From the NCBI GenBank assembly GCA_044508265.1, contig JBIQIB010000011.1, positions 1 through 56,514 on the forward strand: a DNA stretch of 56,514 bases. The letters run 5' to 3'. Source of the stretch: Acidobacteriota bacterium. Its GTDB lineage: Bacteria > Acidobacteriota > Vicinamibacteria > Vicinamibacterales > Vicinamibacteraceae. Of this stretch, positions 1-56,514 are shown in pieces; the first letter of the stretch is position 1, and each line of letters opens with the position of its first letter. Made by a program: the position numbers and the translations under genes. The notes under the pieces were generated by a model. The model saw nothing but the letters and a program-made list of their open reading frames with translations, did not search any database and was not told the DNA's origin.

Positions 1-73
1 CTCACCAACGCCATGCACCGAGAGCGCGCCACCCGCGAGGCCGCCGAGGCGCGGGCGCGGGAGCTGGAGGCGG
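1..73 (+). repeat. copy 1 of a 73-bp direct repeat (partner at 56211-56283)
   Basis: Bases 1-55 are identical to 56211-56265. There is one mismatch at base 56 (C versus T), then bases 57-73 are identical. The sequences diverge completely after that. Confidence 0.95.
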
Positions 74-303
74 CGCTGAACGACGCGCTTGCCGAGATGG
101 AGGAGCGTGCCATCGCTGCCGAGATGCGGGCGAAGGAGGCCAACAGCGGCCGCATTCTGCACGCCGTGACCAAGGCTTACCTCACAGCCCGCTCGAAGGG
201 CGAACCGACCGTTCTGCTGGTCGACCGGCTGGCTCATGAGGTGTGGCGTCACGAGCTGGTCATCAAGAACGTCCGGAAGGCGGAAGAGGTGGACGATGAC
301 TAA
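1..303 (+). CDS. hypothetical coiled-coil protein; the frame is open from base 1, so it is probably 5'-truncated by the window edge (first ATG at 13)
   Basis: Frame-1 ORF with G/C-rich third positions, stop TAA 301-303. Residues LTNAMHRERATREAAEAR.RELEA recur in-frame in the ORF at 55989-56514. Confidence 0.6.
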   Translation, partial: LTNAMHRERATREAAEARARELEAALNDALAEMEERAIAAEMRAKEANSGRILHAVTKAYLTARSKGEPTVLLVDRLAHEVWRHELVIKNVRKAEEVDDD

Positions 304-1141
304 CAGCACCCGCGTAGGAGGGACGCCGTACCGCTTCAACCGTGAGCGCGGCGGCACGCGCCCGATTTCGTTCAGCGACCCGATGACTCTGGCGCTGCTG
401 GCCGGCCACAAGACGCAGACGCGGCGCCTGCGCGGGCTGGGCGGGCTCAACGAGGCGCCTGACGATTGGGCGCTTGACCGCTGGCAGGAGTATCGGGACG
501 GTTCGCTGCGCGCAGTGTTCGATCACGTGGCATCCGGCGAGCCGAACGCGATAGGCATCCGCTGCCCCTACGGCCAACTTGGTGATTTGCTCTACGTGCG
601 CGAGGCGTGGCAGTACGCTGACTGGACCGAGGAGGGCGATCCATTCATCCGCTACCGGGCTGACGGGACGACTCGCCTGCACGACGTGGACATGGTCCCC
701 GAGGAGTGGAGCGACCGCCTCACGAGCATCTGGGCAGAGCTATCGAGCCCGGACAATCTCCGTGCGACGGATGGCCTTGCGGCTGACCGTCGCTGGCGGC
801 CGTCCATCCACATGCCGCGCTGGGCCTCACGCATCGCGCTGGAGATCACGGACGTGCGCGTGGAGCGGCTGCACGCGATTACCGAGGCGGATGCGATAGC
901 GGAGGGCGTCATGGACGGTGGTTGCCTGACGTGCGGCAATAGTAGCCACCCTGCACCCTGCGGATGCAGCGACCCGAGGCCCGACTATCGGGACGCATTC
1001 GTGCGCCTGTGGGACTCCATCAACGGCAAGCGCGAGGGGTGCCGGTGGGCGGATAATCCGTGGCTGTGGTGCCTCACGTTCCGGTGCGACAACTACGTCA
1101 CGCGTGAGGCGCGCGCGTGGGAGGTGGCTCATGGCGCCTAA
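296..1141 (+). CDS. ASCH/PUA-like domain protein (function tentative)
   Basis: ATG 296 overlaps the upstream stop and follows GGAAGAGGTGG. ISFSDPMTLALLAGHKTQTRR resembles the ASCH G-x-K-x-x-E/T-x-R motif. The track ORF starts at 236, but that part overlaps the previous gene. Confidence 0.6.
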   Translation: MTNSTRVGGTPYRFNRERGGTRPISFSDPMTLALLAGHKTQTRRLRGLGGLNEAPDDWALDRWQEYRDGSLRAVFDHVASGEPNAIGIRCPYGQLGDLLYVREAWQYADWTEEGDPFIRYRADGTTRLHDVDMVPEEWSDRLTSIWAELSSPDNLRATDGLAADRRWRPSIHMPRWASRIALEITDVRVERLHAITEADAIAEGVMDGGCLTCGNSSHPAPCGCSDPRPDYRDAFVRLWDSINGKREGCRWADNPWLWCLTFRCDNYVTREARAWEVAHGA

Positions 1142-1550
1142 CGCAGCGCAGGCGTCCGGCCGCGGCACGCCGTACCGATACAACCGGCAGCGCGGCGTGT
1201 GGCAGTTCTGGCCGCGCAACGGCGACGGCTGGCGCGACTCGACGCACGAGCACCGGCACGACCCGACGCGCGGCCCGCTGGACCCCGACGAGCGCGCCTA
1301 CTTCGGCGCGCCGGTCATCATCGGCGACGACGAGCCTGTGCCTGACGAGTACCTAGACGGCCGCTTACTGCAGGCCGTGGACCCGCACGCCGAGCCGACG
1401 CTGGCCGAGGTGGACCGCCTGACGCGTGAGGCGCTGCTGGACGCAATGCCCGACGTGGACCGCGACACGACGCTATACACGCACGAACTCGCGCAACTGC
1501 TGGCCGCGCGCTACGCGCGCGATTTCGCAAACCATCATGGGGAGGTATGA
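1131..1550 (+). CDS. hypothetical protein
   Basis: ATG 1131 lies 4 nt after GGGAGGTGG and overlaps the upstream TAA. Its N-terminal GTPYRYNRQRG is shared with the preceding gene (GTPYRFNRERG). Confidence 0.65.
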   Translation: MAPNAAQASGRGTPYRYNRQRGVWQFWPRNGDGWRDSTHEHRHDPTRGPLDPDERAYFGAPVIIGDDEPVPDEYLDGRLLQAVDPHAEPTLAEVDRLTREALLDAMPDVDRDTTLYTHELAQLLAARYARDFANHHGEV

Positions 1551-1554
1551 CGAC

Positions 1555-4606: not shown

Positions 4607-6973
4607 ATGGCCGCTCCCGTCATCGTGCAGCAGAAGGCCACGGACGACGGGGTGAGCACCGATACCCTGTCGGTCACGCTCGACGCGCCCGTCAGCGCCG
4701 GCAACATGCTCGTTGCCGTCGTGCAGAAATCGTCCGGCGGCGCGCGCGGCTACCGCGTCACCGACGACCGGGGCAACGCGTGGGCCACCGCCATGTATGG
4801 CGACCACAGCTCGGAGCGCCGGGCGGCGATCTACTACGCGCCTAACGCGTCGTCAGGCACGACGCAGGTGACCGTGACGCTGCCGTCGGCGGCCGGTAGC
4901 ATGAGCCTCGCGGTGTTCGAGGTGAGCGGGGCCGACGCCGTGCGCCCGCTAGCCGCTGCCGCCACGTGGGCGCACGACGACACGCAGACGACGCACCCGG
5001 TCGCGCCGCCGGCCGGGGTCGAGGTGCCGCCCGAGAGTCTCGTCATGCTCGCCGGCGCCACGAACGGGAGTAACAGCACCCTGACGCCGCCGTCAGGTTA
5101 CACGACGGTCTACAGCGGCCTAACGAACGCCGGGCGCTTCCCCGTCATGGTGCACGCGACCGAGGTCGCGCTGCACGAGCACCGCCCGGCGTGGGGCACG
5201 TCGACCGCGCGCGGCGCAGGTTCGGTTGTCGTGGCGTTCACCACCACGGCCGGCACGCTGGCGCCCGAGTACGGCCCGCCGCCTCACGTGCTGATGGTCT
5301 CATCGAACGCCGGGCCGAGCAATTCGGACGACCTGAGATGGCGCGACCTGATCGTACGCGACGGCCTGCGCCTCACGATCGTAGACGACGATGCGCCCGA
5401 GGTTGACGTTGGGGCCGAGGACGTCGACGTGGTCCTCCTCGGCAACACGGTGGACACGGACTCGTTAGGCACTAAGTACGTGGATGCGAACGCCGGCGTG
5501 CTGACCCTCAAGCGCCACACGTGGCCGGTATTCGGCCTGACGACCGAACCGGGCACGGCGCTCGCGGAGGTGACGGCCGGCACGGTAGTGGACACGAACG
5601 AGTCGGCCGGCGCCGACGGCGCACTGACAGGCACGCCGCGCGGGGCGATCACCATGTACGACGTAGCGTGTTGGGCGAACTACGTGCCTGACGCCGTGCG
5701 CGCGTCGGGCAGCGTGCCGCTCGTCAGGCCGTCGGCCGCAGACTCGGCGACATGGGCCAGCGAGTGCTACGCGTTCGCCGTCCTTGCAGGCGGGGCGCGC
5801 ACCGGCACGCTAGGCAGTGCGCCGCACCGGCGCGTCGCACTGACGAGCGAGTCCGCGTCGGACGCGGTGCAGCATCACACGGCCGCGATGGACGGCCTCG
5901 CGCTAGGCATCCTGCGCTGGCTCGCCGAGGGGCCGGAGCCGCAGGAGGAGGAGGCGACACCTGAGGGCGTCGCGCTCACCCTAGCGACAGGCACGGCGAC
6001 GGCGGCCGTGGCCACCTCGCGTGAGGCGACACCTGAGGGCGTCGCACTCACCATGTCGTCAGGCACGGCGACGGCAGCCGTGGCCACCTCGCGTGAGGCG
6101 ACACCTGAGGGCGTAGCACTCACCCTAGCGACAGGCACGGCGACGGCGCAGGTCACGCAGTCGCGTGAGGCAGCGACCGAGGGCGTCGCACTCACCCTCG
6201 GCACGGGCACCGCCACGGTGACGACGCGCGCTGACCGGGAGGCGACGACCGAGGGCGTGGGGCTCACCCTAGGCACCGGGGCAGCGGCAGCGGCCGTGGT
6301 TCAGTCGCGCACGGCGACGCCGGCCGGCGAAGGGCTCACGCTTGCGCTAGGATCGCCCACAACCGGCGTTCGGGCCGACAGGTGGGTCGAGGTATTGGGA
6401 ACGGCCCTCACCGCGTCAGCGGGCGACGTAGCGGCCGAGGTCGCCACCTCGCGCGAGGCTGCGCCCGAGGGCGTGGGACTCAGCCTAGGCACGGGCACGG
6501 CGGCGGCCGAGGTGGTGCAGGACGCGTCGCCCGAGCCCGAGGGCGTGGCACTCGACCTGTCGGCCGGCACGCCCGGCGTCACGACCACGGCGGGCGCGAC
6601 GGTGGCCCCGTCCGGGGCGGCGCTCACCCTGTCGTCAGGCACGGCGGCGGCGCACGGTGCGCAGTCGCGTGAGGCGCTTCCTGACGGCCTCGCGCTCACC
6701 CTCACGGCCGGCGACGCGACGACGGCGACGCAGGAGCGCACCGACGCGGTGGTCATCGGCGCCCCGCTCACGCTATCGTTAGGCGAGGCGCAGGCGCTCG
6801 TCGCGCAGTCAGCGGTGGCCGTGGTCGTGGGGCAGGCCATGAGCCTGACGACAGGCGCGGCGCACACGTCGGCGGCCGGCCCGGTCGTCACGGGCACGAT
6901 CGCAGCGCGTCGCATGAGCGGCCCGCCCGTCACGGGGCGGCGCCAGAGCGGCCCTTCTACCACTCACGCCTGA
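4607..6973 (+). CDS. large repeat-containing protein (fibre- or surface-like), function unknown
   Basis: 788-aa ORF. The C-terminal half is about 13 tandem copies of a 24-aa unit (ATPEGVALTLATGTATAAVATSRE). Confidence 0.8.
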   Translation: MAAPVIVQQKATDDGVSTDTLSVTLDAPVSAGNMLVAVVQKSSGGARGYRVTDDRGNAWATAMYGDHSSERRAAIYYAPNASSGTTQVTVTLPSAAGSMSLAVFEVSGADAVRPLAAAATWAHDDTQTTHPVAPPAGVEVPPESLVMLAGATNGSNSTLTPPSGYTTVYSGLTNAGRFPVMVHATEVALHEHRPAWGTSTARGAGSVVVAFTTTAGTLAPEYGPPPHVLMVSSNAGPSNSDDLRWRDLIVRDGLRLTIVDDDAPEVDVGAEDVDVVLLGNTVDTDSLGTKYVDANAGVLTLKRHTWPVFGLTTEPGTALAEVTAGTVVDTNESAGADGALTGTPRGAITMYDVACWANYVPDAVRASGSVPLVRPSAADSATWASECYAFAVLAGGARTGTLGSAPHRRVALTSESASDAVQHHTAAMDGLALGILRWLAEGPEPQEEEATPEGVALTLATGTATAAVATSREATPEGVALTMSSGTATAAVATSREATPEGVALTLATGTATAQVTQSREAATEGVALTLGTGTATVTTRADREATTEGVGLTLGTGAAAAAVVQSRTATPAGEGLTLALGSPTTGVRADRWVEVLGTALTASAGDVAAEVATSREAAPEGVGLSLGTGTAAAEVVQDASPEPEGVALDLSAGTPGVTTTAGATVAPSGAALTLSSGTAAAHGAQSREALPDGLALTLTAGDATTATQERTDAVVIGAPLTLSLGEAQALVAQSAVAVVVGQAMSLTTGAAHTSAAGPVVTGTIAARRMSGPPVTGRRQSGPSTTHA
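5954..6890 (+). repeat. about 13 tandem 72-bp (24-codon) repeats inside CDS 4607-6973
   Basis: Units start at 5954, 6026, 6098, 6170 and 6242. The first three are near-identical (GCGACACCTGAGGGCGT...ACCTCGCGTGAG) and later units degenerate. The end coordinate is approximate. Confidence 0.85.
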
Positions 6974-6984: not shown

Positions 6985-7368
6985 ATGGCAATCACGGACG
7001 GTGCGGTCATCTACCTCGACAACGCGTGGGTCATCCGCGACCACCTGACGCGCCTAGACGACACGGGCACGCGCGAGGTGCCGGCCACGGGGCTCGCCGT
7101 CGAGGGCTGGCTGTCGGCCACGCCGGGCGGCGAGGCGATCGACCCGGCCCTGCGCGTCAGCCTGACGATGCGTGGCACGAAGGGGCGCGCGGCCGTCTAC
7201 GCGTCCGAGCCGATCGACGAGGCGGTGCTGGCCGCGCACCTGACGAGCTACGCCAACCCGGAGCTATCGCCTAGCGAGCGCGTAGTCTGGGAGGTCACGG
7301 CCACGACCGACGGCGACTACCGCAGCGCGAAGCGCCGGCGCCTCGCGCTGCACCGACCCGGCGCCTGA
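6985..7368 (+). CDS. hypothetical protein
   Basis: ATG 6985 after GGGAG; stop lies within GCCTGACG. Confidence 0.65.
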   Translation: MAITDGAVIYLDNAWVIRDHLTRLDDTGTREVPATGLAVEGWLSATPGGEAIDPALRVSLTMRGTKGRAAVYASEPIDEAVLAAHLTSYANPELSPSERVVWEVTATTDGDYRSAKRRRLALHRPGA

Positions 7369-7433
7369 CGCGAGCGCGTTTCACACGGCCGCATGTTTCA
7401 CGTGGCACAAACCACAACCTGACGACTCAGACG

Positions 7434-8327
7434 ATGCCCGCATCATCGAGAACGAGGAAGCCCGCGAGGAGGAAGACGGCGGCGGCCGAACCGGCACGCC
7501 GGCGCCTGACGATCGAGAACGTGCCTATCGAGCGGCTGGTGCCTGCGGCGTACAACCCGCGCACCATGAGTGACGAGGCGCGCGCGAAGCTGAAGCGCGG
7601 CATCGAGCGTTTCGGCCTCGTGGACCCGATCATCGTCAGGCGATCGGACAACCTCGTCGTAGGCGGCCACCAGCGCCTGCAGGCCGTGAGCGAGCTAGGG
7701 TGGCCCGACGTGCCCGTCGTGTACCTCGACGACCTAGACGACACCGAGGCGGCGGCGCTTAACGTCCTGCTGAACAACCCGGACGCGCAGGGTGCGTGGG
7801 ACATGGCGAAGCTCGCCGACCTGCTCAGCGAGATGGACGGGCACGGCTTCGACGCGACCCTGACGGGGTTCGACACCGCCGGGCTGGAGGACATCCTAAG
7901 CTGGACGCCCGACGCGCTGCCTGACGACGACAAGGCGCTCGCGGAGAACTACAGCCGCAAGATTCAGCCGCCGGTCTATGAGCCGAAGGCCGACAAGGCG
8001 CCTCGTGAGGCAGACCTGTACGACCGCACGAGGGCCGACACGCTACTCGCGGCGATCGAGCGAGCCGAGAAGAAGCACGCGCTGCCTCGTCAGGTTGCCA
8101 CGTTCCTGCGCGCTGCGGCCGAGCGCCACACGGTGTTCCGCTTCGACCGGATCGCGGAGTATTACGCGCATGCGCCGGCCGAGGTGCAGGCGCTCATGGA
8201 GGACTCCGCGCTCGTTATCATCGACTTCGACCGCGCCGTCGAGCTAGGATATGTGAAGCTCACCGAGGCGATGCTTGCCGAGGCCGGCTACGCGAAGGCA
8301 GCCGAGGAGGGGGACGACGGTGCCTGA
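7434..8327 (+). CDS. ParB-like nuclease-domain (ParB/Srx N-terminal) protein
   Basis: IERLVPAAYNPRTMS...GLVDPIIVR...LVVGGHQRLQA matches the ParB N-terminal domain signature, behind a basic N-terminal tail. Confidence 0.8.
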   Translation: MPASSRTRKPARRKTAAAEPARRRLTIENVPIERLVPAAYNPRTMSDEARAKLKRGIERFGLVDPIIVRRSDNLVVGGHQRLQAVSELGWPDVPVVYLDDLDDTEAAALNVLLNNPDAQGAWDMAKLADLLSEMDGHGFDATLTGFDTAGLEDILSWTPDALPDDDKALAENYSRKIQPPVYEPKADKAPREADLYDRTRADTLLAAIERAEKKHALPRQVATFLRAAAERHTVFRFDRIAEYYAHAPAEVQALMEDSALVIIDFDRAVELGYVKLTEAMLAEAGYAKAAEEGDDGA

Positions 8328-9201
8328 CGACAGTTTCTGCGCGTTTATCCTCACGCACGGGCGGCCGGATCGCGTGCACACGTACCGCACGCTGCAAAAG
8401 CACGGCTACACGGGGCGCGTCTACTTCGTCGTCGATGACGAGGACCGGACGCTGCCAGAGTACCAGCGGCGCTTCGGTGCCTCACGCGTGCTGGTGTTCA
8501 GCAAGGCCGAGATGGCCAAGACGTTCGACGAGGGCGACAACACCGGCGACCGGCGCGCGATCGTCTACGCGCGCAACGCCTGCTGGCACTTCGCTCGGCA
8601 GTTAGGCGTTAGGTCGTTCGTGCAACTCGACGATGACTACGGCTCGTTCGGCCATCGCTTCGACGAGGACCACCGCTTCGGCTACTGGAAGTGCCGCAAC
8701 CTCGACAGGCTGTTCGCCCTCGTGGTCGAGTACCTGACCGCGACGCCGTTCCTGTCGATCGCGTTTGCCCAAGGCGGCGACATGCTCGGCGGTGGCGGCA
8801 GCCTGCAGCAGAGCACGATCCGCACGAAGCGCAAGGCCATGAATACATTCGTGTGCCTGACGAGCCGGCCCTTCGAGTTCGTCGGCCGCGTCAACGAGGA
8901 CGTCAACACGTACACGGCAACGCAACGCCGTGGCGGCCCGTTCCTCACGCTGCTGGCCCTGCAGGTGAACCAGAAGCCGACGCAGTCGAACGCCGGCGGC
9001 ATGACGGACCTGTACCGCGACAGCGGCACCTATCTCAAGTCGTTCTACTCGGTCGTCTATGCCCCGTCATGCGTCGTCGTCGCCCCGTTGAAGGATCGCG
9101 ACAGCGGCGCGAGGATCCACCACCGCGTGCGCTGGGAGTGCGCCGCGCCGATGATCGTGCCCGAGCGCTTCCGAAAGGCTAGCGCGATGCCTAACACCTA
9201 A
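8320..9201 (+). CDS. possible GT-A-fold glycosyltransferase-like protein (weak call)
   Basis: GTG 8320 after GAGGAGGGGG, overlapping the upstream TGA by 8 nt. The N-terminal strand-helix AFILTHGRPDRVHTYRTL and the acidic FVQLDDDY (DxD-like) suggest a nucleotide-sugar transferase fold. Confidence 0.4.
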   Translation: MPDDSFCAFILTHGRPDRVHTYRTLQKHGYTGRVYFVVDDEDRTLPEYQRRFGASRVLVFSKAEMAKTFDEGDNTGDRRAIVYARNACWHFARQLGVRSFVQLDDDYGSFGHRFDEDHRFGYWKCRNLDRLFALVVEYLTATPFLSIAFAQGGDMLGGGGSLQQSTIRTKRKAMNTFVCLTSRPFEFVGRVNEDVNTYTATQRRGGPFLTLLALQVNQKPTQSNAGGMTDLYRDSGTYLKSFYSVVYAPSCVVVAPLKDRDSGARIHHRVRWECAAPMIVPERFRKASAMPNT

Positions 9202-9213
9202 CGCCCCACGACG

Positions 9214-9771
9214 ATGCCCGCATCGAGAAAGGCCGCGAGGAAGAAGGCCCCGGCAACGACAGCGAAGAAGAAGCCCGCAGCGCGTAAGGCACCCGCACGC
9301 AAGGCACCGGCACGCAAGGCGGCCCCGCGTAAGGCACCCGCCAAGCGCGCAACCCGTAAGGCACCTGCCACAACCACAACCGCGACGCCGGCAACGCCTG
9401 ACGAGAAGAACAAGGGCGGGCGCCCGCCCCTCGACATCGACCCGGAGCAGGTCGAGCGCCTGTCGGCCATCCACTGCACGCACGAGGAAATGGCCGCCGT
9501 CCTCGGGTGCTCGACCGATACGCTCGTCAGGCGTTTTGCGGACCGTATAGAAAAGGGCCGCGAACGGGGCAAGGCGTCCCTGCGCAGGCGGCAGTTCGAG
9601 ATGGCGATGGCGGGCGATCGTACCATGCTCATCTGGTTAGGCAAGCAGTACCTAGAGCAGGCCGACAAGAACGAGCACACCGGCCGGGGCGGCAAGCCTA
9701 TCGAGACGGAGCACACCGAGAAGCGCGTGTACGAGTGGGTCATCGGCGACAAGACGATCCAGTTCGAGTGA
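9214..9771 (+). CDS. terS: terminase small subunit
   Basis: Lys/Ala/Pro-rich basic N-terminus. The HTH-like region GGRPPLDIDPEQVERLSAIHCTHEEMAAVLGCSTDTLVRR and the MLIWLGKQYLEQ segment lie just upstream of the methylase and large terminase. Confidence 0.65.
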   Translation: MPASRKAARKKAPATTAKKKPAARKAPARKAPARKAAPRKAPAKRATRKAPATTTTATPATPDEKNKGGRPPLDIDPEQVERLSAIHCTHEEMAAVLGCSTDTLVRRFADRIEKGRERGKASLRRRQFEMAMAGDRTMLIWLGKQYLEQADKNEHTGRGGKPIETEHTEKRVYEWVIGDKTIQFE

Positions 9772-9797
9772 GTCACCTAACGCCTGACGCCTAACGC

Positions 9798-10766
9798 ATG
9801 ACGTGGAGTGTAGAGGAGGGAGACTGCCGTAAGGTCATGGGCGCAATGGAGGCCGATAGCGTGGACGCGATCGTGACTGACCCGCCCTACGGCCTCGCGT
9901 TCATGGGCAAGGGCTGGGACCACGCCGTGCCCGGTGTCGAGTTCTGGAGCGCCGCCCTTCGCGTGGCGAAGCCGGGCACGTACCTGCTGGCCTTCGGCGG
10001 CACGCGGACCTTCCACCGGCTCGCCGTGGCGATTGAGGACGCCGGCTGGGAGATACACGACTGCCTGACGTGGCTGTACGGTAGCGGGTTCCCCAAGCAC
10101 AAGAGCAAGCTAAAGCCAGCGTGGGAGCCGATTATCCTTGCGCGCAAGCCAGCGAAGCGGGCCACGCTCCTCAACATAGAGCAGTGCCGCATTGAGGCAG
10201 AGCGCCCCACCGGATGGGCCGGAGTACCCACCGGATGGGCCGCCGGCGGCCTTGATTCTCGTGAGCCGGGCGGACGTCCGGTCACCGGCCGCTATCCGGC
10301 CAACGTCGTGCTGGACGAGGATGCTGCTGCGATGCTGGACGCACAGAGCGGCGCGTCGCGGTTCTTCTACTGCGCGAAGGCAAGCCGGGCAGAACGGGAG
10401 GCAGGACTGGAAGGCATGCCGCGCCGCGTGGCTGGCGTAGGCAACGTGGACGAGCAGTCGGGGCGTGATAGCTCCCTGCCGAGCAACCAGTACAGAACGG
10501 ACTCACGTCAGCGCGTGGCGCGAGGCGAAACGCCAACCATTCCGCGCGCCAACCATCATCCCACGGTGAAGCCCATCGCGCTGATGCGCTGGCTCGTGAG
10601 ACTGGTGGCGCCTGAGGGTGGGCTTGTGCTCGACCCGTTCGCCGGCAGCGGTTCTACCGGCTGCGCGGCTGTGCTGGAGGGGCGCCAGTTCATCGGCGCC
10701 GAGCTTGACGCTGACTACGCCGCCATCGCCCGCGCCCGTATCGCGCACTGGGCAAAGCGTGCCTAA
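9798..10766 (+). CDS. DNA methyltransferase, beta-class N6A/N4C (DPPY)
   Basis: Motif IV IVTDPPYG lies near the N-terminus and motif I VLDPFAGSGSTG near the C-terminus. HPTVKP is also present. Confidence 0.9.
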   Translation: MTWSVEEGDCRKVMGAMEADSVDAIVTDPPYGLAFMGKGWDHAVPGVEFWSAALRVAKPGTYLLAFGGTRTFHRLAVAIEDAGWEIHDCLTWLYGSGFPKHKSKLKPAWEPIILARKPAKRATLLNIEQCRIEAERPTGWAGVPTGWAAGGLDSREPGGRPVTGRYPANVVLDEDAAAMLDAQSGASRFFYCAKASRAEREAGLEGMPRRVAGVGNVDEQSGRDSSLPSNQYRTDSRQRVARGETPTIPRANHHPTVKPIALMRWLVRLVAPEGGLVLDPFAGSGSTGCAAVLEGRQFIGAELDADYAAIARARIAHWAKRA

Positions 10767-44433: not shown

Positions 44434-44454
44434 CGAGCACCGCACGACGACGAC

Positions 44455-44477: not shown

Positions 44478-44505
44478 ACCCACCCGACCTAACGAGGACC
44501 CGACC

Positions 44506-45114: not shown

Positions 45115-45126
45115 CGATCACCCGAC

Positions 45127-45149: not shown

Positions 45150-45177
45150 ACCCTAACGACCTAACGAGGACACCACC

Positions 45178-45696: not shown

Positions 45697-45710
45697 CGAC
45701 TCGCCCTACC

Positions 45711-45733
45711 GGCCTGCCCATCCGGGGCGGGCC
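45711..45733 (+). promoter_or_regulatory. conserved intergenic stem-loop GGCCTGCCC-ATCCG-GGGCGGGCC
   Basis: 9-bp stem with one G-T(U) wobble, followed by ACCCTAACGACCTAACGAGGA. Confidence 0.65.
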
Positions 45734-45762
45734 ACCCTAACGACCTAACGAGGACACCTACC

Positions 45763-46071
45763 ATGGCCCGTAAGACGAGGAAGGACGCCCGCACCGCGCA
45801 GCACTATTTCGCCAGCACGTACGTCGCGTGGGCGACCGCCGACACGCGCGAGGCTGCAATCAAGGACGCGGTGCGCCGCACGCGTGAGGCAGTGCGCGGG
45901 CGCGGTTTCATCCCGTGGCCGCTGGAAATCCTGTCGTGCGCCGTGCCGCTGCCGCAGTCGTCAGGCTACGAAATCGACAATTACCTGCCGGTGCGCGAGA
46001 CCGGACGGCACGACGTGCAGAAGCATGTGCAGGCATCGCAGCGCGCCACGCCGGCGCGCGTGGACGCCTGA
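45763..46071 (+). CDS. hypothetical protein
   Basis: Hairpin plus CCTAACGACCTAACGAGGA leader. Confidence 0.65.
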   Translation: MARKTRKDARTAQHYFASTYVAWATADTREAAIKDAVRRTREAVRGRGFIPWPLEILSCAVPLPQSSGYEIDNYLPVRETGRHDVQKHVQASQRATPARVDA

Positions 46072-46080
46072 CGACTAACC

Positions 46081-46103
46081 GGCGCGCCCATCCGGGGCGC
46101 GCC
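46081..46103 (+). promoter_or_regulatory. conserved intergenic stem-loop GGCGCGCCC-ATCCG-GGGCGCGCC
   Basis: Perfect 9-bp stem. The C-to-G change in the left arm is compensated in the right arm. Confidence 0.7.
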
Positions 46104-46132
46104 AACCCCAACGCCTGACGAGGAGCCCGCCC

Positions 46133-46420
46133 ATGTCCCGACGCCGTTCAGATACTCCCGCAGCCTGCCGCGCCCGCGCGCGCCGCGCCGCTCGCAAGGC
46201 CGACGAGTGCCGCCAGCGCGCAGCCCAGTGCCGCCAGTACGCGGAACGCGGCTCGCCTGAATCGCGCGCCGGCTACCTAACGCTGGCGCAGAACTACGAC
46301 ATCTTCGCGGAGTCGTTCGACTCGACCGCGGAGTGGGAGCGCAAGAACGCCGCGCGCGCCCGGCGCCGCGAGGCAGCCCGCCGGAAGCACGACAGCCGCG
46401 CCGTGGTGTCCACCGCCTGA
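46133..46420 (+). CDS. hypothetical basic helical protein
   Basis: Hairpin plus CCTGACGAGGAGCCCGCCCATG leader. Confidence 0.6.
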   Translation: MSRRRSDTPAACRARARRAARKADECRQRAAQCRQYAERGSPESRAGYLTLAQNYDIFAESFDSTAEWERKNAARARRREAARRKHDSRAVVSTA

Positions 46421-49374: not shown

Positions 49375-50229
49375 ATGACGACGACGACGAAGCCCAACCC
49401 GTTTGCCGAGCCCGCAGCAGCGAAGGCGGCGCGTGACGAGGACCGGCCGCGCGCCGTGACGCTGCACGACCGGGCGCACAGCATCGCGATCCTCACCGAG
49501 TGGGAACACGAGCACTACGACGTGATCCTCGCGAACGACGGCGCACTGCCTGACGAGTTGGCCGCGCTGCTCGATGACGCCGAGGTCGAGTTCACGCAGA
49601 AGGTGACGGCGGTGCGCGCGAAGATCGAGGAACTCGACGCCTCGGCCGACGCGGCTAAGGCCACGAAGGACCGGCTGGCGCAGCGCGAGAAGGTTTTCAG
49701 GAACGCGGCCAAGGGCTTGAAGCGCTACTTGGAGGCGTGCCTCACGACGGCCGGGCGCGATCGCATCGACACGCCGCTCGGCGTGGTAGCTATGCAGACG
49801 AACCCGCCGAGCCTGACGTTCAGCCTGACCTACGCCGAGTACGTCGAGCGCTTCGGCAAGGACGGTGAGCGTGCGCCCGAGTGGCTGCGGGTCGTCCCGC
49901 CGTCCGAGCCGACGGTCGAGGTGGCGAACCGCAAGGAGGCGATCGCCGCATGGGATGACGCGCTGCCTGACGTGTGGGTGCGCGCACATAACGAGGTCGA
50001 ACTGACCGACGACGAGGTGACGGCCGAGACGGAGTACGTCGACTTCCTCGCGGCGCAATACACGGCCGAGCAGGACGGCGAGGTCAGCGACGAGGACCGC
50101 CAGCAGATGCTTGTCGAGCGGCTGGATGCGCTGCTCACGTCGAAGAAGGAGGCGTTCGTGCGCAAGGTCATGGCGACCGTGTGCCCGGGCGTCGAGGTGA
50201 CGCGCGGCCGGTCGGTGCGCCTGCGTTAG
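49375..50229 (+). CDS. Gp157-like coiled-coil protein (recombination-module accessory, tentative)
   Basis: Coiled-coil region EFTQKVTAVRAKIEELDASADAAKATKDRLAQREKVFRNAAKGLKRYLEACL, typical of siphovirus Gp157-type proteins found next to SSAP genes. Confidence 0.5.
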   Translation: MTTTTKPNPFAEPAAAKAARDEDRPRAVTLHDRAHSIAILTEWEHEHYDVILANDGALPDELAALLDDAEVEFTQKVTAVRAKIEELDASADAAKATKDRLAQREKVFRNAAKGLKRYLEACLTTAGRDRIDTPLGVVAMQTNPPSLTFSLTYAEYVERFGKDGERAPEWLRVVPPSEPTVEVANRKEAIAAWDDALPDVWVRAHNEVELTDDEVTAETEYVDFLAAQYTAEQDGEVSDEDRQQMLVERLDALLTSKKEAFVRKVMATVCPGVEVTRGRSVRLR

Positions 50230-50463: not shown

Positions 50464-51432
50464 ATGCACGAAACGGACACGGATACGGGAGCAGTCACGC
50501 GGCTGCCTCACGCCGCGCCGCCGCACAAGCTGTGGACCGACCTGTCGGCGCCGATCCCGTCGGTGCTCATCAAGTGGCGACAGGACGGCAAGGTCACGCA
50601 ACGCGACGGGCGCTTCATTGCGCGCTTCGTCGCATACATCGAGGCGAACACTGTCAGGCAGCGCCTCGACGAGCACGCGCCCGGCGCGTGGAGCCTGTTA
50701 GTCACGCCGCTGCCTAACGCGGCTGACGAGGACGGCGTGGTGCTGTTCGCGTTTCGCGCTCGCCTGACGATTCACGGCGTCACGCGCGAGGACGTCGGCA
50801 CCGGGCACGACTACAAGAGCGCGTCGACGGACGCGTTCAAGCGCGTTGCCGTGCGCTTCGGGATCGGCCACGAACTGTACGACTACGAACAGAACTGGGT
50901 CGAGATGGACGGCGACGGTCGTTATGCGCGGCCGGTCGAGGATCCGGCGCGCGCCTACGCTCGCAAGATGGCGCGACTGAAAGACAAGCGCGTCGAGGAG
51001 GCGAAGCGCGCCGAGCAGCGCATGGACATGGCGAATAAGGCGCGTCGTCAGGCAGGTATGCCGGACTACGCCGACGACGACGACAACCGCGAGACGGGCG
51101 GGCCGCCTGACGAGGGGCCGCAGCCACTCACGAGGCCGTCGGTGGGCGACGACTACGGCGAGGCCGAGGCGCCTGAGCCGGCGCGTCGTCAGGCGCGCAG
51201 CACGCGCTCGCGCGTGCAGGGGTCGTCGTCAGGCAGCAGCACTGGTAGCGATGAGCCGGCCGACGACGTGCCGCTGTGCCCCAATTGCGGCGGCACCATG
51301 TGGGACAACCGCCTGACGAAGCGCAACCCCAAGGCGCCTGACTTCAAGTGCCGCGACCGGAACTGCACCGGCGTCGTCTGGCCGCCCCGCCCGGGCGACG
51401 GCATGGGGCCGGAGGACGAGTTGCCGTTCTAG
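50464..51432 (+). CDS. Rad52/Sak-type single-strand annealing protein with C-terminal zinc ribbon
   Basis: FVAYIEANTVRQRLDE...G...DYKSASTDAFKRVAVRFGIGHELYD matches the Rad52/22 pattern. CPNCGG...CRDRNC lies at the C-terminus. Confidence 0.8.
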   Translation: MHETDTDTGAVTRLPHAAPPHKLWTDLSAPIPSVLIKWRQDGKVTQRDGRFIARFVAYIEANTVRQRLDEHAPGAWSLLVTPLPNAADEDGVVLFAFRARLTIHGVTREDVGTGHDYKSASTDAFKRVAVRFGIGHELYDYEQNWVEMDGDGRYARPVEDPARAYARKMARLKDKRVEEAKRAEQRMDMANKARRQAGMPDYADDDDNRETGGPPDEGPQPLTRPSVGDDYGEAEAPEPARRQARSTRSRVQGSSSGSSTGSDEPADDVPLCPNCGGTMWDNRLTKRNPKAPDFKCRDRNCTGVVWPPRPGDGMGPEDELPF

Positions 51433-51840: not shown

Positions 51841-53340
51841 ATGCCTCACGAGAAGGAGAAGCCTACCGTGCCTACCGATGCAACCGACCGATGCGTCCGC
51901 CTGCCCGCCGCCGGCCTGACGCGCGTCCCGCTGGCCGCCCGTGGCCTGTGGGCAACCCTAGCCCTCGTTGCCGACGACGACGGCGTCGTCACGCGTGAGG
52001 CGATCGAGGCGGCCGTGCCTGACGAGTCGCCGCCTGACCTGCGCCGTGCGCTCGACGAGTTGCGCCGCGCCGCGCTCATCGCGCGCTGCCGTGTCCCTGA
52101 CGGCGCGTGGCGCCTCATGTCCGTGGCCGAGGATCAGCGAGCGCGTGAGGCGCAGGCCGAGGGCGGGAGGCGCGCCGCGCACCGGAAGCGCCACGGCGCG
52201 CCTGACGAGCCGGGGCATGTCTACATAGCCCACCGCCCCGACGACGGCACCTGTCAGGTGGGCGTGACCACGAGGCCGCGTCAGGTGACGTACCGCCTTC
52301 GCCGGTCGGCTCGCTTGGCCGGCGCCGCACTAACGGTCGAGTCACACGCCGTGCGCTCGATGGCGGCGGCCGAGGCCACGTTGCGTCAGGCCGGCCTGCG
52401 CCCCGGGCGCTGGCACGCGGTCGACGCCGACACTGAGCACCGGCTGGCGGGCGCCATGCGCACGATCGCCCTGTTCCTGTCACCGGCCGAGGACAGCGTG
52501 ACTCTAACGCCTGACGTGACAACGGGTTCAGTGCGTCACTACCCTAGTGACACCGGGCGTCACTACCCTAGTGACACGGGCGTCACTACCCTAGTGACGC
52601 CTCTAAAGCCTGACGATTCAACGCCTTACGACAGCGGTCGAAATCGCGGCGCGTCAGGTGACATTTCGACGCCGGTCGTAAGGCATGACGAGACAACGGG
52701 TTCAATGCGTCACTACCCTAGTGACGCCCCTGTCACTACCCTAGTGACGCCTCTAAAGCCTGACGCCGCAACGGGTTCGGTGTTAGGCACGAAACAGCGT
52801 CACTTGCAAGTGACGCCTCTAAAGCCTGACGTGGCAACGACTTCCGAGTTCGGCGCCCTTGCTGTTGTTGTTAGTACTACATCGGAGATAGATATGGAGA
52901 ACGAAACAGAGAACAGCAACAACATCGCGCGCGCGCGTGAGGCTGACAGTGACGACTCGTTGCCGCTCGCCATACGCCTGACACGCGCGGCGAACGCGGC
53001 CGTCACCGCCGCTATCGGTGAGCAGGTGCGCCCGATCAGGGCCGACTCGACTCACGCACTAGACCTAGCGCGGCGCGTCGATCAGATTGGAATTAGCGCG
53101 GCCGACGCCGGGCGCGCGATCCGTCGGGCGGCGGCGAAGTTTGCCCGGGCGAACCGCAAGGCGCCGTCGTCGATGGCGTATTTCATCCCCGTAATCGAGG
53201 CTGAGCATGAGACGCTGCGCGGCACGGCCGCGCCTGACGAGCACGCGTCAGGCAGGCCACTCGTCGACGGCCACGGCGGCCTGACGTACACCGGCCAGCA
53301 CCCGGAGCGGGTGCCGGCGCGAAAGCTTCGCAGCCTCTAG
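51841..53340 (+). CDS. replication initiator protein carrying the putative origin (lambda O-like arrangement)
   Basis: Winged-helix-like N-terminus. The central low-complexity part is encoded by palindromic iterons and followed by an A+T-rich stretch. It lies immediately upstream of the DnaC-like loader. Confidence 0.7.
   Translation: MPHEKEKPTVPTDATDRCVRLPAAGLTRVPLAARGLWATLALVADDDGVVTREAIEAAVPDESPPDLRRALDELRRAALIARCRVPDGAWRLMSVAEDQRAREAQAEGGRRAAHRKRHGAPDEPGHVYIAHRPDDGTCQVGVTTRPRQVTYRLRRSARLAGAALTVESHAVRSMAAAEATLRQAGLRPGRWHAVDADTEHRLAGAMRTIALFLSPAEDSVTLTPDVTTGSVRHYPSDTGRHYPSDTGVTTLVTPLKPDDSTPYDSGRNRGASGDISTPVVRHDETTGSMRHYPSDAPVTTLVTPLKPDAATGSVLGTKQRHLQVTPLKPDVATTSEFGALAVVVSTTSEIDMENETENSNNIARAREADSDDSLPLAIRLTRAANAAVTAAIGEQVRPIRADSTHALDLARRVDQIGISAADAGRAIRRAAAKFARANRKAPSSMAYFIPVIEAEHETLRGTAAPDEHASGRPLVDGHGGLTYTGQHPERVPARKLRSL
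52535..52831 (+). repeat. iteron array: five copies of the palindrome GTCACTACCCTAGTGAC plus variant GTCACTTGCAAGTGAC; three are followed by GCCTCTAAAGCCTGACG
   Basis: Copies at 52535-52551, 52559-52575, 52582-52598, 52709-52725 and 52732-52748, with the variant at 52799-52814. Flanking box at 52599-52615, 52749-52765 and 52815-52831. Confidence 0.85.
52858..52925 (+). promoter_or_regulatory. A+T-rich stretch next to the iterons (candidate DNA-unwinding element)
   Basis: CTTGCTGTTGTTGTTAGTACTACATCGGAGATAGATATGGAGAACGAAACAGAGAACAGCAACAAC is conspicuously A+T-rich for this genome. Confidence 0.55.
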
Positions 53341-53399: not shown

Positions 53400-54338
53400 A
53401 TGCCCAACGAGACGAAGAAGCTGCCGCCCGGCCTCACGCCGCCTAGCGCCGAGGTCGAGGTCGTGATGCAGGACGTAAGCGACGAAGCCGAGAAGCGCCG
53501 CGAGCACGTGTGCGACTGCGGCGAGTCGTTCATCCAGTACCGGCTAGGCGATAAGTGGCTGCCGTCCACGTGCCCGTACTGCGCGAACAGTGAGCGGCGC
53601 CTAACGGCGGACGAGGTCATGGCCGACCGCCGGCGGCGCGACGAGGAGGAACGCCAGCGCCAGCGCGTAGCACGCTTGCAGGTGCCGCGCATGTACGCGA
53701 TCGCGTCGACCGACGACCTGACCGAGCTTGCCGGCCTAGCGCCTGACGAGAAGGCGGCGCAGTTGCTCATCCGCAAGCGCGACCTAGCGCGTCGCTACAT
53801 CGACGCGTGGCCGGACCGGCACACCAACCCGCGTTTCCCGCTGATCGTAGTCATGCGCGGCGCCCCGGGCTCGGGTAAGACGACGCTGGCGTGGGCCGTC
53901 ACGCTCGAACTCGTCAGGCGACACGGGATCCACGCGCGCGTCGCGACGTTGGGCAACATCATCCGCGACCTGCGCGAGCCGTGGGGTCGGCGCGGCACGG
54001 ACGCGGGGCCGTCCGAGCGCGTTAGGCTCGCCGCCTACCACGGCGAGGACTTGCTGGTCATCGACGAGGTATCGACGCACGCCCTCTACGGCGAGCCCCG
54101 GCAGGTACTGTACGACCTGATCGCGCCTCGTGAGGCGAACCTGTCGCCGACGATCCTGACGACGAACGACGACGGCGGCACGATCGAGGACTTGCTAGGC
54201 CCGGCGCTGGTGTCGCGCGCCATGCGGTCCGGCGGCATATGGGAGTTCGGGAAGCACGACTACCGCCCGCAGCTATACGAGCGGGACCACCGCAATGCTG
54301 CCGGCGTCAGGCAGCGGGAGGCAACGAGCGATGAGTGA
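53400..54338 (+). CDS. DnaC/IstB-like AAA+ helicase loader
   Basis: Walker A GAPGSGKTT, Walker B LLVIDEV, and an N-terminal CxC...CxxC zinc motif. Confidence 0.8.
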   Translation: MPNETKKLPPGLTPPSAEVEVVMQDVSDEAEKRREHVCDCGESFIQYRLGDKWLPSTCPYCANSERRLTADEVMADRRRRDEEERQRQRVARLQVPRMYAIASTDDLTELAGLAPDEKAAQLLIRKRDLARRYIDAWPDRHTNPRFPLIVVMRGAPGSGKTTLAWAVTLELVRRHGIHARVATLGNIIRDLREPWGRRGTDAGPSERVRLAAYHGEDLLVIDEVSTHALYGEPRQVLYDLIAPREANLSPTILTTNDDGGTIEDLLGPALVSRAMRSGGIWEFGKHDYRPQLYERDHRNAAGVRQREATSDE

Positions 54339-55308
54339 GGGGACCAATGCCATGCACCAGCTGCTGGACGAGGTGCGCAGCGCCCTGCAGCGCGCGATGC
54401 ACGGCGACCTGACGATGTCGGAGGGCGACGAGCTGGTCGGCCGCATAACGAGGAAGCTGCACGAGGCTGACCCGGACGTGACGCTGTTCGCCGACGCGGC
54501 GCCTGACGTGCAGTTCGCCGAGGCGCCGGCGATGATGCCGGAGCCTGACGAGGACGTGGGCGCCGGCGTGCCTGACGCACCGGCGGACGACGCGCTGCCG
54601 GTCGGCGAGGCGGTCGTGCAACACGCGTCGGCGTGGTTCGGCGAGGGTCATGTGACGGCGATGCTGAACGGGTCGGGGCTGGCCAACCCGAAGGGCGACC
54701 GCGCAACGGAGCGCCTGTGGGAGGCGATCGCGGTGGACCGGCGCGCCGCCTCGTCAGGCGCCTACGAACGTGGCTACGCCGCCGGCTACAAGGCGGCTGC
54801 GGACAAGAACTGCAGGCTACTGCGCCAGCGGCTGGAGGTCGTCACCGCTGAGCATGAGCGCCTGCGCGAGAAGTACCACGCGATGCAGGAACTGCCCGCA
54901 CGCGTCGCGGCAGCAGAGAAGCGCGCGGACGATGCCATTGCGGTCGACATGGCGATCATGCTTGACGAGGGTCTAGCGTCGATCGCACACGAGCGCGTTA
55001 GGCAGGTCGGGGAGGAAGGCTGGAGCGCGGAGCATGACGACGCGCACCCGGCCGGCACGCTGGCGCGCGCTGGCGCTGCGTACGCGATGCCGCGCACGTT
55101 CAGGCACATGATCCTCGGCTCTGGCGTAAGCAACGTACTGGCCCGCCTGTGGCCGTTCGACACGGAGCGGTGGAAGCCGACGCCTGACGATCGCGAGCGC
55201 GAACTAGCGAAGGCCGGCGCGCTGATCGCGGCCGAGATAGGTGCGCTGCGCCGCGCGCGTCGCAAGGCCAACGAGGCGTCAGGCACCGGGCCGGAGGTGG
55301 CGAAGTGA
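54331..55308 (+). CDS. hypothetical protein
   Basis: ATG 54331 overlaps the upstream stop by 8 nt. The C-terminal block ERVRQVGEEGWSAEHDDAH...WKPTP looks like a conserved phage module of unknown function. Confidence 0.65.
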   Translation: MSEGTNAMHQLLDEVRSALQRAMHGDLTMSEGDELVGRITRKLHEADPDVTLFADAAPDVQFAEAPAMMPEPDEDVGAGVPDAPADDALPVGEAVVQHASAWFGEGHVTAMLNGSGLANPKGDRATERLWEAIAVDRRAASSGAYERGYAAGYKAAADKNCRLLRQRLEVVTAEHERLREKYHAMQELPARVAAAEKRADDAIAVDMAIMLDEGLASIAHERVRQVGEEGWSAEHDDAHPAGTLARAGAAYAMPRTFRHMILGSGVSNVLARLWPFDTERWKPTPDDRERELAKAGALIAAEIGALRRARRKANEASGTGPEVAK

Positions 55309-55493
55309 TCGGCGAACCATGCCGGGCGCAGACGGGGAGCGGCGCGTGGGGTCTGACGCGCCGCCCGCTGACGCTCGACGAGGCGCTGCGCGGCTGCCTG
55401 CCTGACGTGACCACGGACGAGGAGTGGCGTGCGCTGCACGCCGCCTCTCGTCAGGTAGCGGCCGAACGGCCTAACGCGGCAGGTGCAGCATGA
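55305..55493 (+). CDS. hypothetical small protein
   Basis: GTGA overlap start; 62 aa. Confidence 0.45.
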   Translation: MIGEPCRAQTGSGAWGLTRRPLTLDEALRGCLPDVTTDEEWRALHAASRQVAAERPNAAGAA

Positions 55494-55999
55494 CGACAGT
55501 CCGCAAGTGGGGCGTGCAGTGGCGCGACGGTGCATGGGAGCAGGACGACACGATTCCTTGCCCGTTGCTGGACGGCGCCACCCTGTACGAGTCAGCATCT
55601 CACGCTGTGGCGATGGCGGGCCTTCGCGCCGGCACTCCCGTCGTCCGCGAGGTGCTGGTCACGCAGGAGGCGGGCGGGATCGAGGTGGGTGAGCGCCTGA
55701 CGGCGATCAACCGGAAGCCGAGGGAGTGCGTGGTGCGCTCCGCTGGGGACGCTTCCACGGTGTTCGCTGGGGGTACCACCTACCTCGCGCCCGATGGGGG
55801 CTTTACGTCTGACCCCGCCGAGGCAAATGTGTTTGCCAATACGTTAGGTGCCCTAAGGCCGCTGCTCGACGTGGCCCACCTGAACACCTACACGATCCAC
55901 GCCATCCGCCGCACGGAGCCTCGTGAGGTGCGTCGTGCTGGCCGGACGCTGGACGAGATACTGGCGAGCGTGCCGGTGGAGGTGCCGCATGACGACTGA
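55490..55999 (+). CDS. hypothetical protein
   Basis: ATGA overlap start; 169 aa. Confidence 0.65.
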   Translation: MTTVRKWGVQWRDGAWEQDDTIPCPLLDGATLYESASHAVAMAGLRAGTPVVREVLVTQEAGGIEVGERLTAINRKPRECVVRSAGDASTVFAGGTTYLAPDGGFTSDPAEANVFANTLGALRPLLDVAHLNTYTIHAIRRTEPREVRRAGRTLDEILASVPVEVPHDD

Positions 56000-56514
56000 A
56001 CAGCCCACCCCTGCGCCTGACGCCGTGACGCTGCCGGCCGGGATAGTCACCACGCTACACGATGCGCTTGCCTCTGCGTATGCCTGCGGGCGTGCGGACG
56101 CCCGTGAGCCACAGCATGGGATCACTTACCGCATCGACGGAGACAAGGACCAAGCTGTCCGTTCCGAGATTGCCGTAGCGCTGCAAATAGCGGTGGAACA
56201 GGTGCAGTACCTCACCAACGCCATGCACCGAGAGCGCGCCACCCGCGAGGCCGCCGAGGCGCGGGTGCGGGAGCTGGAGGCGGAGGTGAAGCGCCTGAGC
56301 GAGCCGGAGTGGTATTGGGACCCCGTCGCCGAGTGTTCGTACCCTGACCCCGCAGAGGCCGTGAGTTGCACATCTGCGGGCGCGATCGTGGAGCTGGACG
56401 CCTGCGTCCGAATCCGCACGGTGTTCGCGGCTGCGATTGGTGACGAGGACGACTGGTGTCAGGTGTTCGACACGCAAGAGGCCGCAGAGGCAGCGATTGC
56501 CGCCGCCCGTCAGG
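55989..56514 (+). CDS. hypothetical protein, 3'-open at the window end (not in the ORF track because it has no stop)
   Basis: ATG 55989 overlaps the upstream stop. The frame stays open to base 56514 with G/C-rich third positions. It contains YLTNAMHRERATREAAEARVRELEA, the same module as bases 1-73. Confidence 0.6.
   Translation, partial: MTTEQPTPAPDAVTLPAGIVTTLHDALASAYACGRADAREPQHGITYRIDGDKDQAVRSEIAVALQIAVEQVQYLTNAMHRERATREAAEARVRELEAEVKRLSEPEWYWDPVAECSYPDPAEAVSCTSAGAIVELDACVRIRTVFAAAIGDEDDWCQVFDTQEAAEAAIAAARQ
56211..56283 (+). repeat. copy 2 of the 73-bp direct repeat
   Basis: See partner at 1-73. Both copies are in the same reading phase of their ORFs. Confidence 0.95.

Follow-up and report, generated by a model that had tools for sequence, protein, structure and literature searches.

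Few genome-wide DNA signals are known. Chi, the uptake sequences of competent bacteria, the FtsK-orienting polar sequences (KOPS) and the palindrome HIP1 belong to this small group, and each of them exposed a DNA-reading machine. Here we describe the asymmetric word CCTNACG, which occurs 530 times in a phage genome of 56,514 bp and 69.4% G+C (contig JBIQIB010000011.1 of assembly GCA_044508265.1, analyzed over its whole length and referred to below as the window). This density is about ten times higher than that of any of these signals.

Uptake signal sequences (USS) of the Pasteurellaceae and DNA uptake sequences (DUS) of Neisseria are asymmetric words of 9 to 12 bp, present in both orientations and in all reading frames at about 1 copy per kb; their accumulation is due to a bias acting on density. 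The stoperators of Cluster A mycobacteriophages are asymmetric and scattered, often overlap stop codons in short spacers and are biased toward the direction of transcription; they measure 13 to 14 bp, occur 24 to 36 times per genome, mostly between genes and with few exceptions in one orientation, and their repressor is known. The Chi-enriched phages LLS, P1 and Pseudomonas MD8 carry the word about once per 1.2 to 1.9 kb (∼0.5 to 0.8 per kb), in nearly a single orientation and clustered near one end, and have no recombination genes (Zheng et al. 2025, PMC12315714). HIP1 (GCGATCGC) of cyanobacteria is 15- to 300-fold over-represented, and peptide, RNA and expression effects were excluded as its cause (Xu, Lawrence and Durand 2018, PMC5861425). 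In phage DNA hypermodification, post-replicative modifiers are sequence specific and sometimes need a ParB partner: the 5-methylpyrimidine dioxygenases (5mYOX/TET-JBP) show sequence preferences when they oxidize the thymine of replicated DNA, a ParB partner is required by one of their subclasses, and glycosyltransferases are their commonest neighbors (O'Toole et al. 2026, PMC13229309). The known hypermodification enzymes prefer contexts of 2 to 3 nucleotides, with no enrichment of target sites reported (PMC13229309; Pyle et al. 2023, bioRxiv 10.1101/2023.12.21.572611), and the authors of the latter work remark that a sugar modification limited to a motif would protect the genome poorly.

The array in the window fails the defining features of the Chi-rich phages, HIP1, the uptake sequences and the stoperators, which are its closest known kinds. 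As in the Chi-enriched phages, no other oligomer is as frequent as one short asymmetric word, which far exceeds what codon usage predicts and owes its abundance to selection acting on DNA. The word of those phages is, however, the known RecBCD signal of the host, whereas the window carries 9.4 copies per kb, uniformly spread and in a 61:39 ratio of orientations, and encodes both a Rad52/22-family annealing protein (50464-51432) and a Sipho_Gp157 protein (49375-50229). Membership in that group was rejected on orientation, on clustering and density, and on the presence of a recombination module. The array has in common with HIP1 a selected excess within and between genes; HIP1 is a palindrome of cellular chromosomes with roughly one copy per gene, whereas CCTNACG is asymmetric, phage borne, about ten times denser and turns over in position, so that the class of HIP1-like palindromic octamers does not accommodate it. 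The USS and DUS belong to competent bacteria, are read by the uptake machinery and reach a tenth of the density seen here, and we know of no uptake-like step for a phage. The stoperators differ in their single orientation: the 530 copies of the window are 88% intragenic and 39% inverted. The window resembles the 5mYOX/TET-JBP hypermodification loci in having a ParB-like gene and a TET-associated glycosyltransferase (TAGT) gene beside the terminase, and the enzymes of those loci act on DNA in a sequence-dependent manner; it differs from them in that no dioxygenase or hydroxymethylase was found in its open reading frames (ORFs).

Exact counting of CCTNACG over positions 1 to 56,514 gave 324 copies on the + strand and 206 on the − strand, with a mean spacing of 106 bp between the 530 sites. 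Dinucleotide-preserving shuffles of the window contained 37.8 ± 6.2 copies (maximum, 57), which makes the excess ∼14-fold. An earlier sequence-only reading of this DNA had counted by hand 26 + and 6 − copies in 39,001-42,000 and 18 and 8 in 7,021-9,800, and had extrapolated to about 10 per kb, several hundred copies and an excess of an order of magnitude; the exact recount of both regions returned identical numbers and the genome-wide total bears the estimate out. The excess also survives when the peptides are held fixed. A synonymous-codon shuffle within genes, which preserves proteins and spacers together with a codon usage already inflated by the motif, retained 160 ± 7 copies on the + strand and 50 ± 5 on the − strand, and a codon permutation null gave 88 and 35. 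The two outcomes that the sequence-only reading had named as fatal to its claim, an excess no greater than in codon-preserving shuffles and one that vanishes with the peptide content fixed, thus failed to appear. The 9-mer GCCTGACGA is found 105 times on the + strand and 42 times on the − strand versus 0.39 expected per strand.

The word is sharply defined. The one-mismatch neighbors of CCTNACG are at or below mononucleotide expectation, apart from CGTNACG, a palindromic form that is mildly raised (51 versus 19 expected), and the other palindromic form, CCTNAGG, is depleted (6 versus 19 expected). All six fixed positions of the core are required. The middle base had been taken as free, which proved incorrect: it is G in 209, A in 66, C in 42 and T in 7 of the + sites, and G in 102, C in 49, A in 46 and T in 9 of the − sites (pooled: G 311, A 112, C 91, T 16). 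The codons TCA and TTA are chosen at 64% of the opportunities when they yield a purine at N (R; xCG-TNA-GGx, on the opposite strand) and at just 10% when they yield a pyrimidine (Y; xCC-TNA-CGx). Since the same codons are involved in both cases, the preference for N=R is independent of the codon that carries it. The flank bias had been described correctly, with G at position −1 in 70% (+) and 82% (−) of the sites and A or C at position +1 in 81 to 83%; position −2 favors T or C. The working consensus, flanks included, is the asymmetric Y-G-CCT-R-ACG-[A/C]. After masking of CCTNACG just ordinary high-GC coding words were left, and nothing comparable was found as a second motif. The tetramer CTAG is not depleted in the window (151 versus 157 expected). 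CTA is an unusually common leucine codon for a genome of 69% G+C, with 196 codons, only 18 of which lie within motifs.

No frame or strand is free of copies, and the spacers contain them too, as the sequence-only reading had reported. Their density is uniform across the 75 ORFs, each of which contains some and nearly all of which are encoded on the + strand, and across all 2-kb bins, and the methyltransferase gene described below is the sole low gene; recent foreign islands were rejected as an origin on these grounds. The spacers are the densest class, with 15.4 sites per kb versus 8.9 per kb in coding DNA (1.7 times), and hold 64 of the 530 copies in full. The motif had also been noted within stop codons, and 29 of the 75 are indeed embedded in it as CC-TGA/TAA-CG. 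The coefficient of variation of the spacing is 0.84 versus 0.99 ± 0.04 for random placement, that is, near-Poisson and slightly more even, and no periodic or phased spacing was detected beyond this mild evenness; the largest motif-free gap in the window measures 698 bp. Tandem repeats and mobile mini-elements were discarded as the source of the motif because the copies are dispersed, near-Poisson and few of them abut.

The strand bias that had been claimed is real, though moderate. Within the spacers 47 sites are in the + orientation and 17 in the − orientation (27% inverted), and the synonymous opportunities for CCTRACG are realized at 68% on the + strand and 44% on the − strand, with + exceeding − in every region. 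The rarer codons required for the − orientation may explain part of this bias. Sites on the + strand make up 65%, 46% and 64% of the total in three blocks, a share that does not flip with the GC skew. A polar translocase guide of the KOPS or SRS type, for which a strong skew switching at the origin and terminus is expected, was rejected accordingly.

CCTNACG is thus read at the DNA level, with both orientations working, because both strands, all frames and the spacers are enriched, the core positions are all required and the N=R preference does not depend on the codon. The idea of a DNA recognition site, one of several candidates listed in the sequence-only reading, stands on this evidence, and neither codon usage nor peptide content is the cause, given the outcome of the synonymous shuffles, the codon permutation and the analysis of opportunities. 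A signal in RNA or peptide (PDE/LT peptides, a codon effect or an mRNA motif), another of those candidates, would agree with the coding-strand bias and the recurrent peptides. It is disfavored by the 206 antisense copies, ∼4 times the synonymous-shuffle expectation, and by the use of all frames, the spacers being the densest class and the codon-independent rule at N.

The layout of the spacers bears on the possibility that the copies form a binding-site array for a phage DNA-binding protein, with no chemistry involved, either as stoperator-like roadblocks or for a protein that coats or compacts the genome. The early-region spacers share a stop codon within the motif, a hairpin, tandem CCTAACGaCCTAACG, a ribosome-binding site and ATG. 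The unit at 41060-41146 (+; repeat families D2 and D3) combines a stop-in-motif, a G+C-rich hairpin, tandem CCTAACG, a ribosome-binding site and ATG, with more copies of this type at 44428-44514, 45100-45186, 45684-45770 and 46078-46140, and the unit at 39744-39794 (+; family D5) consists of a tandem motif, CCTAACGaCCTAACGaGGAac...ATG, with the ribosome-binding site and start codon. The early-spacer word CCTAACGACCTAACGAGG had no match in IMG/VR. The asymmetry of the site, the embedded stop codons, the density of the spacers and their 47:17 bias toward the transcribed orientation, and the tandem copies immediately upstream of early-gene ribosome-binding sites are what such an array would look like, and the window encodes several small helix-turn-helix (HTH) and sigma-region-4-like proteins besides the ParB-like one. 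Against this, 88% of the copies are intragenic and 39% lie in the opposite orientation, no repressor or integrase was identified in the window, transcription-factor sites usually tolerate mismatches whereas CCTNACG does not, and stoperator sets comprise tens of sites, not hundreds. We consider a pure binding array unlikely.

The sites are costly to the genes. The encoded tripeptide permits the word synonymously at 803 places, of which 441 (55%) are realized, rising to 82% in the best frame (+0, Pro-[Asp/Asn/His/Tyr]-x); relatives realize 2 to 6% of their synonymous opportunities. The window also has more such opportunities per kb than the relatives (15 versus ∼9), which indicates that amino acids were changed too. 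The rare-codon cost pointed out in the sequence-only reading was confirmed, with 61% of the CCT, 78% of the TTA and 51% of the TCA codons lying within motifs. The major capsid gene (18158-19213, +) provides a worked example of how sites arose: its codon alignment with two metagenomic relatives (L127 and L128; 72% and 68% identity) reveals CCG to CCT twice and CTC to TTA, together with the amino acid changes Thr-Ala to Leu-Thr and Glu/Ser to Gly. The sites were written genome-wide by point substitutions, which often introduced rare codons and in some cases replaced amino acids. The motif alone would lower the G+C content by about 2 points, so the ancestor would have been close to 72%, the value of capsid relatives that are free of the motif. 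By rough reasoning, an occupancy of 50 to 80% needs only weak selection per site, of the order of codon bias, and since weak selection per site suffices, the benefit would be one that grows with the number of sites.

No cultured relative was found by megablast, and TerL is at most ∼30% identical to anything cultured. The lysis proteins gave no match to any cultured phage, and all 10 proteins tested were singleton clusters at 90% identity among ∼15 billion proteins. The capsid relatives, all from metagenomes (L123 to L129 and L428; 55 to 72% identity and 51 to 74% G+C), carry 0.3 to 1.7 sites per kb, and a further one (L429, 64% identity) has a mild excess of 6 sites versus 1.4 expected. Clustered CCTGACG in IMG/VR was seen, among the matches listed, in tandem repeats only. 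The endolysin has one 77%-identical homologue, on a contig of 3,717 bp and 66% G+C from the separate run SRR20950923 (L425), which is syntenic with 34.8 to 38.6 kb of the window. This is the lysis region (34777-38640, +; identified by Pfam), comprising an alpha/beta hydrolase, a holin-like ORF, an Amidase_2 protein and two ORFans. L425 holds 42 copies of CCTNACG (11.3 per kb) versus 2.7 ± 1.7 expected, with G 25, A 11, C 6 and T 0 at the middle base and flanks as in the window. An assembly or sequencing artefact is ruled out by the presence of the trait in this independent sample; moreover, the long ORFs are intact and the identical sequence is present in two assemblies (NCBI and Logan, as a 56,661-bp contig), L002 being 100% identical to the window. 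An artefact or a signal at the RNA or peptide level is, on the whole, hardly credible.

The proteins of L425 and the window are 70% identical, and four-fold sites outside the motifs are 53% identical, near saturation. Of the coding sites in the syntenic stretch, 28 for the window and 33 for L425, 16 are common to both. Both peptides permit the word at 24 places, of which the window realizes 16 and L425 19; 15 are realized in both, versus 12.7 expected under independence. Opportunities present in a single lineage are realized at 9 of 19 places in the window and 12 of 21 in L425. It is thus the density that is maintained, and not the individual positions, in at least two diverged phages, and the same density with turnover of position indicates continuing selection, or drive, on density. 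Molecular drive with no benefit to the phage would consist of a repair or gene-conversion bias, of the kind of very-short-patch repair or of that acting on USS and DUS, which converts near-cognate words into the exact one. Such a process would leave near-cognate words depleted beside an excess of the exact word, as is observed, would let positions turn over between the two phages, and could draw on the VRR-NUC-type nuclease and recombination genes that the window encodes. The sites arose, however, through transversions, double changes and amino acid replacements, which are too varied for one mismatch-specific enzyme, and the more-than-random evenness fits selection on density better. To our knowledge, no mismatch-specific enzyme exists for an asymmetric site of 7 to 9 bp, which also counts against drive, and we regard this explanation as very unlikely.

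The pattern among relatives is informative about a signal imposed by the host, in which a helicase-nuclease of the RecBCD, AddAB or AdnAB type or a defense system spares DNA that bears the word as "self"; biased gene conversion, through degradation up to the first site and subsequent recopying, may help. The excess recurs in L425, the contig that shares the host-linked lysis cassette, and not in capsid relatives at 61 to 72% identity, the mild case of L429 apart. The specificity is as sharp as that of Chi, an orientation-dependent reader would account for the excess of + over − sites, and enrichment of host Chi by phages is documented (PMC12315714). The features of the Chi-rich phages are, however, absent here in orientation, terminal clustering, lack of a recombination module and density, and the benefit of stopping a nuclease should saturate at tens of sites, not hundreds. 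The Chi-like signal of the sequence-only reading does not hold in that strict form, and a looser host nuclease signal is kept as a rival that we regard as a serious possibility, if a doubtful one.

Neither tRNA genes nor Rfam matches were found in the window, and the receptor-binding-like protein has no homologue at all. The best plasmid matches of the ArdC protein are in Roseomonas and Methylobacterium (∼42% identity), and the Roseomonas plasmid is not enriched (13 sites versus 12 expected). A motif-rich bacterial genome was not seen among the GTDB matches listed, which comprise only scattered single chance-like matches in high-GC taxa; the best locus among them reaches 2.75 per kb, in a metagenome-assembled genome (MAG) of Gemmatimonadaceae without homology to the phage. 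The strict pattern returned 13 hairpin-type matches from the Joint Genome Institute (JGI) metagenomes, at 3.5 per kb or less. A host signature of comparable density, which the phage had been suggested to inherit, is therefore not among these GTDB matches or in the strict JGI scan, and a weaker signal is possible. Mild dispersed enrichment was observed in three high-GC environmental contigs with no phage homology: L345, a Gemmatimonadaceae MAG contig with 22 copies in 8 kb and 22% of the synonymous opportunities realized; L306; and L421, where several (T/C)GCCTAACG copies adjoin an array of CGCCTGACGAT with a 14-bp period. They could offer a faint clue to the host or the reader.

As the best explanation we propose, tentatively, that the phage modifies its own DNA in a sequence-specific manner and that the 530 copies are the target sites. 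This modification would be introduced after replication, at each copy of the motif. Being confined to a site of 7 to 9 bp, it would shield little DNA per site, and each extra site would bring a small additive gain in shielding against host nucleases or interference complexes, so that weak selection of the strength of codon bias would drive the site toward saturation. An asymmetric site of 7 to 9 bp with an A before C near its 3' end is in the style of the sites of Type IIG, Type III and BREX methyltransferases. The candidate machinery would be the cassette at 7.4 to 10.8 kb, with its ParB-like protein, a glycosyltransferase of GT-A type similar to the base-J glucosyltransferase (JGT) and a beta-class amino-methyltransferase, or else an unrecognized ORFan.

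The first gene of this cassette (7434-8327, +) encodes a protein with a ParB N-terminal domain (PF02195, 3.4e-11; phrog_620, 3e-50), whose best solved relatives are the N-terminal domains of Noc and Spo0J, and is a candidate accessory protein or reader. It is followed by a TAGT gene (8275-9201, +; PF20691, 5e-34; phrog_842, 7e-73), the product of which is a candidate DNA-base glycosyltransferase; its motifs FVQLDDDYG (DDD) and VNEDVNTY (EDV) fit the R...DDD...EDY/F description of the phage GT-A enzymes, which align with the JGT of Trypanosoma cruzi (Pyle et al. 2023, bioRxiv 10.1101/2023.12.21.572611). A small-terminase-like HTH protein with a Lys/Ala/Pro-rich N terminus (9214-9771, +; phrog_309, 1.3e-6; weak HTH matches) comes next, then a spacer with three abutting copies, CCTAACG CCTGACG CCTAACG (9776-9796, +), the beta-class N6/N4 DNA methyltransferase (9798-10766, +; PF01555, 1.1e-31; closest solved relative, CcrM) and terL (10618-12264). 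The adjacency of the ParB-like and TAGT genes near the terminase is a feature of the hypermodification pathways. In 80 TAGT loci of IMG/VR a ParB homologue is present in 78, directly upstream of TAGT in 76 of these 78 and usually beside the terminase, and no TET/JBP or ThyA-like gene is conserved within 5 kb of the 80 loci. Among cultured phages, those of Escherichia coli, Salmonella, Nocardia, Vibrio, Haloarcula and Lactobacillus include carriers of the pair, some of them small (Lactobacillus c5 and phiLdb, the E. coli vB_EcoS phages, Nocardia NTR1 and Haloarcula HHTV-2). By gene neighborhood, ParB and TAGT form a conserved stand-alone two-gene module.

In two capsid relatives the slot upstream of the terminase is occupied by other genes: in L126 (110-4725) by 7-deazaguanine/queuosine genes (PTPS, radical SAM, GTP cyclohydrolase I and Vut_1), and in L123 (1-4619) by a formyltransferase-containing set. 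From its gene content, this slot looks like a hot spot for the exchange of DNA-modification cassettes in this lineage.

Several observations weigh against a phage-made modification and the part of the cassette in it. The methyltransferase gene is the only motif-poor gene of the window (2 copies versus 9.1 expected; Poisson P = 0.006). The largest motif-free gap (10064-10762) also falls within it. This scarcity suggests that the gene was acquired recently, as a late arrival. No TET/JBP dioxygenase or ThyA-like hydroxymethylase that would provide the glycosyltransferase with a hydroxymethyl base was found by Pfam in the 75 ORFs, nor in the ORF subsets scanned with PHROGs, NCBIfam and the PDB sequence search; divergent 5mYOX/TET-JBP members can evade Pfam (PMC13229309). 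The 80 contigs with a TAGT at 45 to 60% identity, nearly all of them with the paired ParB, show no comparable enrichment, and neither do the 80 contigs with methyltransferase homologues (1.2 sites per kb or less), three of which have a best aligned segment 80 to 82% identical. Nocardia phage NTR1, an ordinary high-GC phage that has the ParB-TAGT pair, carries 33 sites versus 36 expected, 31 of the 33 being CCTCACG. The suggestion of the sequence-only reading that the ParB-like protein or the methyltransferase is the reader thus finds no support in these 160 contigs and NTR1. The homologue comparison does not tie the motif to the cassette genes, and the specificity of homologues at 45 to 60% identity may differ. 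The excess of + over − sites, both in the realized opportunities and in the spacers, is not predicted by simple coverage. A trait common to L425, with which lysis genes are shared, and absent from similarly diverged capsid relatives fits a host-imposed signal equally well, and a modification at the motif is a prediction from sequence.

In its full form, the proposal would be that a small phage clade rewrote its genome to maximize the density of a site read by its own modifying or coating factor, with saturation of the motif serving, in a way not described before, to turn a site-limited modification into near-continuous protection and ParB plus TAGT acting as a stand-alone DNA glycosylation system without TET/JBP. 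This fuller version is possible, and we hold it with considerable doubt. That the underlying mechanism is new is a real possibility. Given the cost in rare codons and amino acids, kept up by two diverged phages, the reader must matter greatly to the phage. The problem is a tractable one, with a site defined to the base, a small genome and few candidate genes. If the reader is a modification enzyme, it would add both a new anti-defense strategy and a DNA-modifying tool of high specificity; if the word is a host nuclease or defense signal, it would be the "self" word of an unsampled high-GC bacterium. Under either reading, a near-saturated site offers a quantitative gauge of how weak selection reshapes a coding genome.

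Some further features were observed. An unrelated contig found through the methyltransferase (L266, IMGVR_UViG_3300006802_000397; also L263 to L265) has a milder over-represented octamer, with GCTGGCCA present 24 times in 21 kb on both strands versus 2.1 expected. The lysis cassette of the window, with an esterase-like alpha/beta hydrolase, a holin-like protein and an Amidase_2 endolysin (34777-36664), recalls the LysB/LysA arrangement of phages of mycolic-acid bacteria. ORF 4607-6973, located upstream of the packaging genes, encodes an Ala/Thr/Gly-rich protein of 788 amino acids with nine tandem repeats of 72 nucleotides (24 amino acids; REATPEGVALTLGTGTA) at 5879-6794, which looks like a fiber or decoration protein. 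ORF 54295-55308 (337 amino acids) matches several PHROGs without an assigned function and no Pfam family; the C-terminal part of its product (GEEGWSAEHDDAH) resembles the DUF550 dATP/dGTP pyrophosphohydrolase-type motif. The two ends of the window (1-80 and 56211-56290) are copies of an 80-bp repeat that differ at 3 positions (96% identity) and lie 56,210 bp from each other. The genome could be circular or terminally redundant, with a length of ∼56.2 kb and an assembly that runs across a variant; alternatively, the repeat could consist of two paralogous gene starts. Clustered iterons and inverted repeats (GTCACTACCCTAGTGAC, with repeat units of 150 bp) are found at 52494-52860, within a 499-amino-acid ORFan (51841-53340) directly upstream of the gene for a DnaC-like loader; by analogy with lambda O, this is probably a replication origin inside the initiator gene.

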